UHGV virus genome: UHGV-1652557
Strand: one strand, 5' to 3'
Origin: a virus
Length of the DNA: 10,143 nucleotides
This document shows, in pieces, positions 3,672 through 9,987 of the stretch. Each line of letters starts with the position of its first letter. The stretch's first letter is position 1. The notes below the pieces were generated by a model. That model worked only from the letters and a program-made list of their open reading frames with translations, searched no databases and was not told where the DNA came from. The position numbers and the translations under genes were made by a program.

Positions 3672-4052
3672 ATGAGAAAAATCCTAATCGCTGCCATGAT
3701 GGCATCTGTATTGGCTGGGTGTGCTTCTTCAGGCAACCAGCAACTCAAAAATGAAACTGAAATTAGTGTCCAGTCTAAACTTCAGGAAGGTAAAACAACC
3801 AAGAATGAGGTTAAATCTTACTTTGGTTCTCCTGATGCTGTTTCATATACTGACAGTGGAAACGAGATCTGGAAGTACGCCTTTGCAAAAGTAAAAGTTA
3901 ATGGCACCACTTTTATTCCATTCTATGGATTATTCCATAATGGAACGAACGGTACGAAAAAAGAACTTACTATTCTTTTTAACGATGACACGATTAAGAA
4001 ATACACAATGTCAGAAACCCAAATAAACTCGAAATCAGGTTGGGCTGACTGA
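3672..4052 (+). CDS. Lipoprotein moron with a BamE/SmpA-OmlA-like domain (candidate lysogenic-conversion or superinfection-exclusion protein)
   Basis: 126 aa. Signal peptide with lipobox LAGC (MRKILIAAMMASVLAGC). Mature part shows a BamE-like pattern (KTTKNEVKSYFGSPDAVSYTDSGNEIWKYAF ... LTILFNDD), from memory. Preceded by an AT-rich 228-bp spacer with a perfect TATAAT at 3651-3656. Followed by a strong terminator. Confidence 0.85.
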   Translation: MRKILIAAMMASVLAGCASSGNQQLKNETEISVQSKLQEGKTTKNEVKSYFGSPDAVSYTDSGNEIWKYAFAKVKVNGTTFIPFYGLFHNGTNGTKKELTILFNDDTIKKYTMSETQINSKSGWAD

Positions 4053-7214: not shown

Positions 7215-7235
7215 ACATGAAAAGCAAAATCATCA

Positions 7236-7260
7236 GGGAGCTACAGGCTCCTTTTTTATT
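7236..7260 (+). terminator. Rho-independent terminator inside the exo-xis region
   Basis: Stem GGAGC (7237-7241) / GCTCC (7247-7251), loop TACAG, then TTTTTTATTATT. Confidence 0.6.
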
Positions 7261-7312: not shown

Positions 7313-7534
7313 ATGGCAGACATAATTGATTCAGCATCAGAAATTGAAGAATTACAGCGCAACACAGCAATAAAAATGCGCCGCCTGAACCACCAGGCTA
7401 TATCTGCCACTCATTGTTGTGAGTGTGGCGATCCGATAGATGAACGAAGACGACTGGCCGTTCAGGGTTGTCGGACTTGTGCCAGTTGCCAGCAAGATCT
7501 GGAGCTTATCAGTAAACAGAGAGGTTCGACGTGA
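7313..7534 (+). CDS. TraR/DksA-family C4 zinc-finger protein (lambda Orf73-like RNA polymerase-binding regulator)
   Basis: 73 aa with CxxC-(17)-CxxC (CCECGDP...CRTCASC), typical of TraR/DksA C4 fingers. Same size and position as lambda orf73. Confidence 0.82.
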   Translation: MADIIDSASEIEELQRNTAIKMRRLNHQAISATHCCECGDPIDERRRLAVQGCRTCASCQQDLELISKQRGST

Positions 7535-7938
7535 GCGAAATTAACTCTCAGGCACTGCGTGAAGCGGCAGAGAAAGCCGGTGAAGATAAGTGGCAGGCTA
7601 AAAAAATAAATGGTGATTTTTTCGTTATTCGTCACGGTAGTTATACAAGACAGCATGGCTACACATCGTATCAACCCATTGCGGAGATTGATTGTAAGCC
7701 AGTCCGGGATTTTGTTGCCAAGGCTAATCCGGCTACCGTGCTGGAATTACTGGATGAACTGGAAGCAGCAAAAAAGCGCATTGCAGAACTGGAAGCGCGG
7801 GAAATACTGCTCCCGGAACGTAGCAGCATGCTTCATCGAACAGATTTTCACGATGATTACCAAACGGTAATGGCATACAAAGTTTCTGAAGTCATCGATG
7901 CAATCCGCGCTACTGGCATTCGCATCAAAGGAGAGTGA
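7531..7938 (+). CDS. Ead/Ea22-like protein
   Basis: 135-aa ORF with a GTG start overlapping the preceding stop (GTGA). Coiled-coil segment PATVLELLDELEAAKKRIAELEA resembles the Ead/Ea22-like family, from memory. Confidence 0.65.
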   Translation: MSEINSQALREAAEKAGEDKWQAKKINGDFFVIRHGSYTRQHGYTSYQPIAEIDCKPVRDFVAKANPATVLELLDELEAAKKRIAELEAREILLPERSSMLHRTDFHDDYQTVMAYKVSEVIDAIRATGIRIKGE

Positions 7939-7939
7939 G

Positions 7940-8695
7940 ATGATTCACTACCACGGTGGGCCTATTACTCCTGATACGTGCGCAATGAGAGCATGGAAAG
8001 GGCGACATGCGTTTATCAGTTTTGCGCATTCAGGCCAGATCAATCTCGCGGCTGAATACTGTCAGTCGTTCGCGCTGGACAACGGTGCATTCACCGCCTG
8101 GAAAGCAGCTGGCAAAAACAAAATCGACTGGAGCGATTACTACGAGTTTGTTGCTCGCTGGAAGAATCACCCAGGATTCGATTTTGCCATTATCCCGGAT
8201 GTTATTGATGGCGGAGAGGAGGAAAATGATGCGCTTCTGAATGAGTGGCCTCACGGAAAACTAGCTGGCGTTCCAGTGTGGCACATGAATGAAAGTGACG
8301 AGCGATTTATTCATTTGTGCAATGAGTTTCCGCGAGTGGCTATCGGTAGTTGTGGCGACTATGACGTAAAGCGCCCAACTCTTGCGGTAGCCAGAATGAA
8401 AGACCTGATTCGTCACATTGTTGATGGGCATGGTCAGCCGGTTACGAAACTACATGGATTGCGCATGTTAAATCCGCTGATATTCACAAAATTACCCTTA
8501 GCCAGCGCAGATAGTACGAACGTCGCTCGAAACATCGGTATTGATAAAGCCTGGTCTGGGGCTTATGCACCTGCAAGTAAAGAGACACGCGCAGCATTAA
8601 TGGTAGAACGGATTGAGGCACACAATAGCCCTGGTTCTCTTGCGTATTGTGAACAACGCGACCGCTTTGAAATGCAATTGCAACTAGCAGTTTAA
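7940..8695 (+). CDS. TGT-fold protein, candidate DpdA-like 7-deazaguanine DNA transglycosylase
   Basis: 251-aa reading from the ATG at 7940 with an AAGGAG RBS. The upstream ATG at 7898 overlaps the Ea22-like gene by 41 nt. Motifs LDNGAF (D47, nt 8078-8080) and D191-STNVARNIG (nt 8510-8539) resemble the tRNA-guanine transglycosylase motifs DSGG[FY]Q and FDCVxPTRxARxG, from memory. No C-terminal zinc subdomain. Functional call is tentative. Confidence 0.6.
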   Translation: MIHYHGGPITPDTCAMRAWKGRHAFISFAHSGQINLAAEYCQSFALDNGAFTAWKAAGKNKIDWSDYYEFVARWKNHPGFDFAIIPDVIDGGEEENDALLNEWPHGKLAGVPVWHMNESDERFIHLCNEFPRVAIGSCGDYDVKRPTLAVARMKDLIRHIVDGHGQPVTKLHGLRMLNPLIFTKLPLASADSTNVARNIGIDKAWSGAYAPASKETRAALMVERIEAHNSPGSLAYCEQRDRFEMQLQLAV

Positions 8696-8705
8696 GGACT
8701 AACAA

Positions 8706-9281
8706 ATGACCACTATTACCAAAGAACGTATTGAATTGTTCATTAAAAATCCGCTTGAAAACGGGCTTACTCGTGGCGAACAAATGGAACTGGCACGAAT
8801 TGCACTGGCATCACTGGGAGCAGAATCTGTAAGCCAAACTTACAACTTGCCAGAATTAATCGAAGGCATGGAGGTTTCCATTGATGTAAGCACTTGTGAT
8901 GCGGATTTAGGTAATCGCTATTTCGGTACCGTCACCGAGGCGTTAGAACTTGATACTGCCAAGAATGGTTACATCCTCCTGGTTCAGGACGCAGAGCCAA
9001 ACTTCGATATAAATGGCAATTCTCCGGTAACTCCGGATGGTTGGGTTATAGTGCCGAAGAAACTAACCGCTGAGAACGGCGCTAAGGGTGTGCTATCCGG
9101 TGAATTTTCAGAAACTACGTTTATAAGCTGCCCGGAATGCTTTGGTGATGATGATTGCGAAACTTGTGACGGCAGCGGAAGAATCGAAATCAAGGTTCCA
9201 GTCAGTTGGACAACTATCAAAACTATTTGGGCTAAAGGGTGTGAGTACTTTTCAATAGTAGCACCGCAGCAAGATGGGTGA
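8706..9281 (+). CDS. Strongly acidic hypothetical protein with a C-terminal zinc-ribbon (CPEC-x6-CETCDGSG)
   Basis: 191-aa ORF, AAGGA RBS 7 nt upstream, 10-bp gap after the preceding gene. About 31 Asp/Glu against 14 Lys/Arg. C-x2-C-x6-C-x2-C-x-G-x-G motif similar to DnaJ-type zinc ribbons. Confidence 0.8.
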   Translation: MTTITKERIELFIKNPLENGLTRGEQMELARIALASLGAESVSQTYNLPELIEGMEVSIDVSTCDADLGNRYFGTVTEALELDTAKNGYILLVQDAEPNFDINGNSPVTPDGWVIVPKKLTAENGAKGVLSGEFSETTFISCPECFGDDDCETCDGSGRIEIKVPVSWTTIKTIWAKGCEYFSIVAPQQDG

Positions 9282-9342
9282 TGAAAACAAGTATTTATAA
9301 CTTAAAAGCATTAAAAAATCGCTTATAGATCAAAAGAAATCT

Positions 9343-9384
9343 ACGTCAAATATTACTATATTTCAATGTGTTATAATTACCCCG
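9343..9384 (+). promoter_or_regulatory. Candidate sigma70 promoter with extended -10 (TGTTATAAT)
   Basis: TGnTATAAT at 9369-9377 in an AT-rich spacer after the stop at 9281. Weak -35 TATTTC at 9349-9354. Confidence 0.4.
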
Positions 9385-9407
9385 TCCATAAAATGGGGGG
9401 ACACAAA

Positions 9408-9650
9408 ATGTTCAAACGCTGCATCACCAAGTGTGGAAGCACACCTGACATCCAAGCTTTTATTAATGAAGATGGTAAGCTTGTTGTTGAGAGGAGTGGT
9501 CCTTTTATTAGCAAACAACTTATCATTACCTCTCCAGCGGAGATGGCCGGGGAATGGATAGTTTCTGAACCAGAGGAGTTGCACATCCCGCTTCCTTATG
9601 GCCCTCAGGGACTGATTTATAACCGTTATGTTCAGAAGGAGGCGGGTTGA
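9408..9650 (+). CDS. Small hypothetical protein (80 aa)
   Basis: ATG at 9408 preceded by a GGGGGG SD-like run (9395-9400) and the candidate promoter. No recognisable family. The antisense 152-aa ORF has junk-like composition. Confidence 0.4.
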   Translation: MFKRCITKCGSTPDIQAFINEDGKLVVERSGPFISKQLIITSPAEMAGEWIVSEPEELHIPLPYGPQGLIYNRYVQKEAG

Positions 9651-9930
9651 CAATGTCAGGCATAACATCGCCGAGAAATCGAAAGAAAAACAGAACAAGG
9701 TAAACGTTGACCTTGCAGCATCAGGCATGGAGTACAGAGAGCGCCTTAACATACCTGTTATCACTGAGCAGGTATCATGAGAGCAACCTGAGCACTCACG
9801 CGAGTATTTCATGGAGCGCATCAGATACTATCACGAGCAGTCGTTAAACATGCCCAAGGGAAGCAACCCATGGTATATCGATATGGATGAACAGAACGCC
9901 AAGAAGTAAACGCAATTTGAACGAATGCGA

Positions 9931-9987
9931 ACCCGCCGAGTGCGGGTTTTCTTTTATCTGAACTCGCTACGGCGAGTTTTGTTTTAT
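9931..9987 (+). terminator. Tandem rho-independent terminators closing the leftward (PL) transcription unit
   Basis: T1: ACCCGC (9931-9936) / GCGGGT (9942-9947), then TTTTCTTTTAT. T2: AACTCGC (9961-9967) / GCGAGTT (9972-9978), then TTGTTTTAT. Both are oriented for plus-strand transcription. Confidence 0.78.

Follow-up and report, generated by a model that had tools for sequence, protein, structure and literature searches.

We have analysed an open reading frame (ORF) at positions 8706–9281 of a 10,143-nucleotide stretch of viral DNA (UHGV virus genome UHGV-1652557; this whole stretch is called the window below). The window represents the early region of a lambdoid prophage. The product of this ORF, hereafter the target, is on balance probably an accessory protein without enzymatic function, encoded in the early-left (pL, exo-xis) region and belonging to the mosaic Ea22/EaA/HkaE class. 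The target is already present in the databases, where it is misnamed or called a pseudogene fragment, and known mosaic exo-xis proteins have the same frame. The novelty lies in the C-terminal cargo of this frame, a distinct and very widespread zinc-knuckle domain with no Pfam family, fold relative or published function, which is unlike the Ea22 C-terminal domains reported to date. An earlier note, made from the letters of the DNA, had presented the ORF as an acidic zinc-ribbon protein and as a candidate anti-defence partner of the TGT-like gene just upstream. Our analyses show this protein to be one of the cargo variants of a cassette system, in which two junctions are conserved.

Sequence features of the target

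The target and its parts are as follows.

8706–9281, + strand: target ORF, probable mosaic exo-xis accessory protein; 191 amino acids plus stop codon, with a PHROG 60 match and 99%-identical 191-residue database proteins.
8694–8698, + strand: Shine-Dalgarno-like AAGGA, overlapping the stop codon of the TGT-like gene, 7 nucleotides (nt) 5' of the target ATG.
8706–8819, + strand: leader module, residues 1–38 (MTTITKERIELF...ARIALASLG), predicted helical, ending at the conserved ...AEPV junction; defined by DNA and PHROG matches.
8820–9005, + strand: middle module M, residues 39–100, acidic and probably beta-rich; it occurs separately in other proteins and is common to HK620 HkaE and other DUF551 proteins.
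9006–9074, + strand: linker and recombination junction, residues 101–123 (DINGNSPVTPDGWVIVPKKLTAE), with the GNSPVTPDGW motif; defined by conservation and DNA breakpoints.
9075–9278, + strand: zinc-knuckle alpha/beta core, residues 124–191, with the NGAK..L.GEF motif, a Cys-bearing beta-hairpin and a C-terminal helix that contains W..IK.IW; defined by alignments, an AlphaFold2 (AF2) model and substitution rates.
9129–9179, + strand: Cys4 knuckle CPECFGDDDCETCDGSG, residues 142–158 (CxxC-x5-CxxCxGxG), with four Cys conserved in the representatives.

As read from the sequence, the target begins with an ATG at 8706 and ends with a stop codon at 9279–9281. It contains 31 acidic (D+E) and 14 basic (K+R) residues, which gives a net charge of −17, and it has an isoelectric point of 4.22 and not a single histidine. 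The length of 191 residues, the charge of about −17, the 10-bp gap after the TGT-like gene (whose stop codon lies at 8693–8695) and the ribosome-binding site of its own had all been described in the earlier note, and they are borne out. Two details of the Cys motif needed correction. The motif reads C142-P-E-C145-FGDDD-C151-E-T-C154-D-G-S-G, i.e., its central spacer is x5 rather than x6, and it is not the end of the protein, as 33 residues follow it (a strand and a 17-residue helix, residues 159–191). Two more cysteines, C64 and C179, lie outside the motif, and position 179 is mostly Val or Ile in relatives.

The acidity emphasised in the earlier note is real but moderate. The target has the most negative net charge among the window proteins, while its charge density of −0.089 per residue ranks second in the window, after that of Gam (−0.102). 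In addition, acidity is a family-wide trait: 47 of 48 species-level carriers of the zinc domain are acidic, with a median of −0.061 per residue. The suggestion of an undescribed protein type likewise holds only for a part of the molecule. The protein as a whole is catalogued, in PHROG 60, in NCBI entries and, by its frame, in HkaE, whereas the zinc domain indeed has no Pfam family or structural relative. The profile and structure searches proposed in that note returned PHROG 60 (E = 2.8e-40, target residues 1–190 against profile positions 116–322 of 461), no significant Pfam family and, for the zinc domain, no fold from PDB or BFVD.

Mosaic anatomy

Searches of DNA and protein collections divide the target into four pieces, namely the leader, M, the linker and the zinc core. 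The DNA of the leader (target nt 1–119) has matches of 94–100% identity in well over a thousand E. coli genomes, followed there by differing sequence, and the matches to PHROGs 3323, 10451 and 660 are confined to the N-terminal 34–45 residues. The leader type is also that of P27 gp06 and gp10 and of 933W L0065. In the full-length AF2 model, its helices lie at residues 6–14 and 23–38 with a predicted local distance difference test score (pLDDT) of about 70; this model has a mean pLDDT of 45 and low confidence over M. Over residues 1–114, the target has 95.6% identity with the N-terminal part of HK620 HkaE, which is a DUF551 protein. On the other hand, residues 39–191 recur as the C-terminal part of a 253-residue ead/Ea22-like protein. 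This protein is encoded by a P22-like prophage without a TGT-like gene, and the prophage DNA is 98.4% identical to the target from the ...AELEAEPVSQ... junction on.

The second junction is the linker, in which G104, N105, S106, P107 and P110 are conserved at 92–97% across the representatives. DNA match breakpoints cluster here, at target nt 309–341, and the GNSPVTPDGW motif also precedes DUF551 in other proteins, e.g., P27 gp06 and 933W L0065. We searched 1.84 billion representative proteins exhaustively, and 1,988 of them matched at E ≤ 1e-3. The matched stretches fall in three classes, residues 1–~120, ~30–124 (e.g., 36–124) and ~101–191. Among the 150 best representatives, the other domains were DUF551 (29), Ead_Ea22 (14) and dATP/dGTP pyrophosphohydrolase/DUF550 (6), and also ASCH/DUF3850.

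Some short sequences of this region are kept beside many unrelated gene bodies. They are the leader MTTITKE...ALASLGAEPV, the GNSPVTPDGW linker, and the ...GIRIKGE end of the Ea22-type ORF upstream of the target (see below). These look like conserved junction cassettes which mediate module exchange in the exo-xis region.

The C-terminal zinc-knuckle domain

We have modelled residues 102–191 separately with AF2, with a mean pLDDT of 84.3 and values of 90–94 in the core blocks. The predicted domain starts with an extended segment and a short helix. A beta-hairpin follows, whose tip carries the Cys knuckle, and a helix of 17 residues forms the C-terminal end. No fold relative of this model was found in PDB or BFVD. 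Scans of the target against Pfam, NCBIfam and PADLOC gave nothing significant (sole PADLOC match, E = 0.015), and sequence searches of PDB with the single protein and with a domain profile gave only sub-threshold matches to DnaJ zinc fingers (E = 0.04–0.09). We also found no functional data on these modules in the literature on DUF551/DUF550 anti-defence or on DpdA in lambdoid phages.

The invariant positions in two alignments are N124, G125, A126, K127, G132, E133, W168 and K172. Each of the four Cys is conserved in 89–90 of about 90 representatives, and the knuckle is most likely a structural zinc site. Other positions of the domain are nevertheless better conserved than the cysteines, which sit in an acidic hairpin of variable length and are missing from a few relatives. 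Between the target and diverged copies, the ratio of non-synonymous to synonymous substitution rates (dN/dS) of the C-terminal domain is 0.14–0.27, which indicates that the domain is under purifying selection.

The domain is widespread. A profile search, in which 8,000 candidates were scored, found it in at least 3,403 clusters at 90% identity. Species-level genomes that carry it belong to Enterobacterales, Pseudomonas, Burkholderiales, Alphaproteobacteria, Bacteroidota, Planctomycetota and Verrucomicrobiota, and phages of Serratia, Pseudomonas and Vibrio carry distant relatives with 45–49% identity. The zinc-domain gene of Pseudomonas phage pAN stands behind a TraR/DksA gene, as ea22 stands behind orf73 in lambda. 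Many homologues are stand-alone proteins of 76–94 residues. In larger proteins the placement varies: the target has the domain at its C-terminal end and pAN_47 at its N-terminal end, while the Serratia and Vibrio proteins have it somewhere in their C-terminal half. It is fused to a Lar domain in the protein P0287 (PF14354, residues 5–57, E = 3.7e-7, above the cutoff) and to a YggL 50S-ribosome-binding domain in P0379. With thousands of protein clusters in several bacterial phyla, this compact domain is a clean target for domain curation.

Place in the exo-xis region and likeness to Ea22-class proteins

The gene order of the window is P, O, YdaT/YdaS-type immunity genes, cI, Gam, Bet, Exo, DUF1317, DUF1382, an orf73-like gene, the N-terminal part of Ea22 (Ea22-N), the TGT-like gene and the target. 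A near-identical copy in E. coli FORC 064 runs on into xis and int at the ybhC site, which places the target in the exo-xis region. This region is transcribed early, is non-essential and highly mosaic, and can affect the lysis-lysogeny decision (PMC8614690, PMC7093339, PMC10834534). The features of the window that mark the transcription unit of the target are given here.

7313–7534, + strand: TraR/DksA-type zinc-finger gene, the equivalent of lambda orf73 (PF01258, E = 5.1e-9; PHROG 54), which marks the conserved exo-xis block.
7531–7938, + strand: ORF for the Ead/Ea22 N-terminal domain and a coiled coil, 135 residues, with the end ...GIRIKGE (PF13935, E = 2.6e-17).
9929–9979, + strand: two terminator-like hairpins, the first + strand terminators past 7253, which close the transcription unit of the target.

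Since no terminator-like site was found on the + strand between 7253 and 9929, six ORFs should lie on one stretch of the early-left operon, namely the orf73-like gene, the Ea22-N ORF, the TGT-like gene, the target, a 94-residue ORF starting at 9366 and a theta-subunit fragment.

Known proteins occupy the same slot between exo and xis, which corresponds to the ea region of P22. HK620 HkaE, 933W L0065 and P27 gp06 are DUF551 proteins whose frame is that of the target, i.e., an MTT(I/F)T.KE leader running to ...EPV or EPF, a middle, a GNSPVTPD(G/S)W linker and a C-terminal domain. In P27 gp06 and 933W L0065 the leader is MTTFTDKE...EPF and the linker GNSPVTPDSW, and their middle module is unlike that of the target. 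All three end in DUF551, while the target has the zinc-knuckle domain instead. Consistently, DUF551 (PF04448) had no match in the target, and only leader, M and linker are common to it and DUF551 proteins.

The relation to Ea22 is of the same kind. Ea22 proteins are mosaic and their C-terminal domains are all acidic (PMC10834534), and Ea22-like proteins resemble the target in their region, their early expression and their interchangeable acidic C-terminal domains. We have found two features of this class in the target, namely the place between exo and xis and an exchangeable acidic C-terminal domain; tetramer formation and a pro-lysogenic phenotype also belong to the description of the class. 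The Ead/Ea22 domain itself (PF13935) has no match in the target and sits in the upstream ORF at 7531–7938, but relatives do fuse PF13935 to the core of the target. The ...GIRIKGE end of this upstream ORF is also found in P27 Ea22 V3, and a near-identical GIRIKRGE in 933W L0069. L0065 of 933W, which is annotated as similar to P22 EaA, has been read as the C-terminal portion of an Ea22 gene that an insertion has cut off (PMC8614690). 933W is thus a precedent for ea22 being split into an N-terminal and a separate C-terminal ORF, with the Ea22-N ORF of the window just upstream of the target. Overall, the layout of the window looks like this split, with an Ea22-N ORF, an inserted TGT-like cassette, and a leader-type ORF with C-terminal cargo.

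The target is thus built of exchangeable cassettes, which meet at the two conserved junctions, ...AEPV... and GNSPVTPDGW. The parts are a predicted helical leader, an acidic middle, and a C-terminal domain of ~70 residues in which, according to the model, the Cys4 knuckle caps a beta-hairpin packed on a helix. On the reading that the target is an Ea22-class accessory protein, the zinc domain would serve as a portable module for protein-protein interactions and would bind one conserved partner through its invariant surface motifs, LTAENGAK..L.GEF and W..IK.IY. The varying N-terminal parts (the leader, the Ea22 coiled coil, a MazG-like pyrophosphohydrolase, Lar, YggL) may then present or exploit it. 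The likely effect would fall in the early interplay of phage and host, i.e., the lysis-lysogeny balance, as for Ea22, or the protection of incoming DNA. The target would stand beside the TGT-like gene because that cassette tends to insert directly 5' of leader-type genes, with no dedicated two-gene system.

Several points weigh against this reading. The mechanism is drawn from protein architecture, and M and the zinc domain are without a characterised homologue. The published Ea22 variants (lambda, V1–V3) are not homologous to the modules of the target; V1–V3 were compared by way of P27 and 933W, with which the target has only the linker and the leader type in common. The Ea22 gene favours lysogeny (PMC10834534, PMC7093339), and the evidence for this phenotype comes from lambda and Phi24B Ea22 only; a pro-lysogenic role of the target would be carried over by analogy. 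Zinc binding by the Cys4 knuckle is presumed. Finally, the co-location with TGT-like genes (in Erwinia, Pseudomonas and the locus L139, see below) and the frequent methyltransferase neighbours could mean a more specific link to DNA modification.

The anti-defence question and the DNA-modification neighbourhood

The most serious alternative is that the acidic protein or its zinc domain inhibits or alleviates host restriction or another defence, by Lar/Ral-like binding or DNA mimicry. It would do so independently of the TGT-like gene, though as part of a common programme that protects incoming DNA. We consider this unlikely, though an anti-restriction role is possible. It would suit an early-expressed, non-essential accessory cargo in a hypervariable slot. 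The Lar restriction-alleviation domain is fused to the zinc domain in P0287, relatives are fused to a MazG-like dATP/dGTP pyrophosphohydrolase, and the carriers are consistently acidic. To this we can add the neighbourhood. In a census of 150 ORFs flanking zinc-domain genes at 42 species-level loci, the commonest annotated neighbours were C5 DNA methyltransferases (13 ORFs), followed by integrases (7), and there were one N6/N4 methyltransferase, one D12 methyltransferase and one PAPS reductase. TGT-like genes lie within 6 kb of the zinc domain at 5 of 48 species-level loci (Erwinia and four Pseudomonas), with L139 as an additional case.

On the other hand, the census is dominated by related Pseudomonas prophages, and at least five of its methyltransferases come from one related set. 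The restriction-related pointers, both the methyltransferase neighbours and the Lar fusion, are circumstantial, since genes of this kind are common in accessory regions close to int. The fusions to YggL, DUF551 and Ea22 point elsewhere, and Lar (PF14354) has no match in the target itself. The sole PADLOC match is insignificant, and PADLOC models defence systems rather than anti-defence proteins.

The earlier note had compared the target with DNA mimics such as Ocr and ArdA, and this analogy turned out to be weak. The likeness is that both are early-expressed, acidic proteins of phages or mobile elements. However, the target is modular, its zinc domain is predicted to be a small globular alpha/beta unit and not an elongated DNA-like surface, and its negative charge of 0.089 per residue is much weaker than in classical DNA mimics such as Ocr, in which the charge is very high and regularly spaced. 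In the scans above, no Pfam family matched the target significantly, those of Ocr and ArdA were not among the matches, and the model of the zinc domain found no fold in PDB or BFVD. Acidity is also general in Ea22-type C-terminal domains.

In six Pseudomonas loci (L183, L194, L180, L186, L196, L200), large orphan C5 cytosine DNA methyltransferases of 580–775 residues, ASCH-like proteins and DUF4406 proteins cluster with zinc-module genes, and some of these loci also hold TGT-like genes. The clusters look like a DNA-modification-rich accessory island beside the integrase.

A bolder proposal, which we hold to be quite improbable, is that the NGAK/GEF zinc-knuckle domain of ~70 residues works alongside DNA-modification enzymes, i.e., DpdA-type transglycosylases, orphan C5 methyltransferases and Lar. 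It might, for example, alleviate restriction, or direct or regulate the modification of incoming phage DNA. If so, function rather than position would explain why the domain recurs near TGT-like genes in prophages of E. coli, Erwinia and Pseudomonas. If the domain is linked to DNA modification or restriction alleviation, it would be a widespread new player in phage counter-defence; if there is no such link, it would be an ordinary member of the mosaic accessory repertoire.

The TGT-like neighbour

7940–8695, + strand: TGT-like, DpdA-family gene, 251 amino acids (PHROG 887, E = 2.3e-103); an independent cassette, outside the target.

By its sequence, the neighbour is a genuine DpdA-family homologue. 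It had no match in Pfam, NCBIfam, PADLOC or PDB sequences, and it is 35–43% identical to homologues in phages, e.g., Salmonella 7-11 and Pantoea MED16. The DNA of phage 7-11 is 7-deazaguanine-modified. In MED16, the DNA contains 2'-deoxy-7-amido-7-deazaguanosine (PMC8306585). No preQ0-synthesis genes were found within the window, and the enzyme would thus rely on preQ0 from the host.

The earlier note had treated the two genes as a possible unit. As a dedicated partner, the target might assist or regulate the TGT-like enzyme, or act as its specificity subunit, in the insertion of 7-deazaguanine into DNA, which we regard as very unlikely. The genes are indeed 10 bp apart in one transcription unit, and the suggested co-transcription is plausible, though not specific to this pair, as six ORFs share the unit. 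Proximity also recurs elsewhere. At L139, a TGT-like gene (92% identical) precedes a composite of variant leader, different middle, linker and zinc domain (79%). In Erwinia typographi (L213), a stand-alone zinc-domain gene lies 80 bp upstream of the TGT-like gene (85%), and in four related Pseudomonas prophages the two genes are 0.2–2.4 kb apart. But order and spacing vary between these lineages, i.e., adjacency is not conserved, and the zinc domain is also fused to unrelated effectors.

We found the TGT-like gene in 201 of 5,426 complete E. coli genomes, the zinc domain (at least 80% covered) in 194, and the junction of the TGT 3' end with the full target in only 29, where all of these co-location counts are raw ones, dominated by clonal copies and set against no matched background of prophage accessory regions. 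The 29 copies are all about 99.8% identical, so they represent one lineage, and in about 85% of the E. coli occurrences of either gene the other one is absent. Viral contigs give the same picture: 67 of 80 contigs with the zinc domain have no TGT-like gene within 5 kb, and 12 of the remaining 13 show the arrangement of the window itself. Among sequenced phages, the TGT-like gene occurs in 108 of 50,697 records, including BTP1, SPN3UB, SfI and HK106, and there was no overlap with the roughly 23 zinc-domain phages among the 60 listed of these 108 records. There is therefore no obligate link between the two genes, though a weak functional association may exist. The target gene is regularly present without the TGT-like neighbour, which is the outcome that the earlier note had named as the first half of what would speak against its proposal.

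What does stay downstream of the TGT-like gene is the leader. In 80 viral contigs, the downstream sequence held the leader in 51, the full target architecture in 11, the zinc core in any form in 13, and no module in 22. As the leader is found in 51 of 80 with varied cargo, the conserved link is that of the TGT-like cassette with the slot upstream of a leader-type gene, and the zinc domain is one of several cargoes.

The DnaJ name and the pseudogene call

In many NCBI records the same ORF (191 residues, 99% identical, P0001 onward) is named 'molecular chaperone DnaJ', probably because of a sub-threshold likeness to the DnaJ zinc finger. A role as a DnaJ-like co-chaperone or a modulator of DnaK is highly improbable. 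In its favour are the CxxCxGxG motif and the sub-threshold profile matches mentioned above, which cover LT....AKGV..EF...CxxCxGxG. In addition, the Pfam family DnaJ_CXXCXGXG matches 7 of 79 relatives, with a best E of 1e-4. The DnaJ cysteine-rich domain, Anti-TRAP and BSD2 all have, as the target does, a CxxCxGxG preceded by a second CxxC. However, the DnaJ class has two interleaved sites, while the target has one Cys4 site in a 17-residue knuckle. The four CxxCxGxG repeats with two zinc centres of the DnaJ domain are not found in the target, which has one CxxC and one CxxCxGxG and no PF00684 match. Anti-TRAP (PF15777) gave only E = 0.68 and 10.4 bits against a cutoff of 32. The flanks, i.e., the NGAK/GEF strand and the C-terminal helix, also differ from those of DnaJ, Anti-TRAP and BSD2, with no structural match.

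A DnaJ identity of the target itself was rejected: it has no J domain (no PF00226 match), and it has no histidine and hence no HPD.

Other records show the ORF as a 46-codon 'incomplete' pseudogene fragment (L001 6001–6138 in FORC 064, and L002 4094–4231). The gene is visibly chimeric, and PGAP marks the locus 'incomplete, missing C-terminus' in FORC 064 and 20AR0354, but the least credible explanation is that of a recombination scar, i.e., a non-functional chance fusion of gene fragments, since the 191-codon frame is intact in FORC 064, a near-full-length DNA match is present in about 40 genomes, 191-residue proteins of 94–99% identity have been deposited from many isolates, a ribosome-binding site is present, dN/dS of the C-terminal domain is low, and the junctions lie at domain boundaries with every module conserved elsewhere. 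Both the misleading DnaJ name and the inconsistent pseudogene call can thus be corrected.

Other features of the window

A terminator-like hairpin at 7235–7253 lies inside the early-left operon, just 5' of the orf73-like gene, and it is presumably bypassed via N antitermination. Directly 3' of the target there is an AT-rich spacer of 84 nt (9282–9365). It is followed by the 94-residue ORF at 9366–9650 (PHROG 9613, function not assigned), which is kept behind differing upstream cargoes and is WP_000476264.1 in L001–L003. The next gene is a fragmented DNA polymerase III theta (HolE-like) gene, at 9628–9780 and in the following frames to ~9909 (PF06440, E = 3.4e-15, for a 50-residue ORF). In related prophages, this theta gene is an annotated pseudogene with an internal stop or frameshift.

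Just after cI, a lipoprotein-like ORF is found at 3672–4052 (MRKILIAAMMASVLAGC...), with a GC content of 38% and a weak BamE-like match (E = 1.6e-4, below the cutoff). It looks like a moron with a candidate function in lysogenic conversion or exclusion. The genes opposite cI, at 1809–2348 (− strand) and 2418–2648 (− strand), are of the YdaS (a Cro-like helix-turn-helix protein) and YdaT type, as in the Rac prophage, and not of the lambda cro/cII type.

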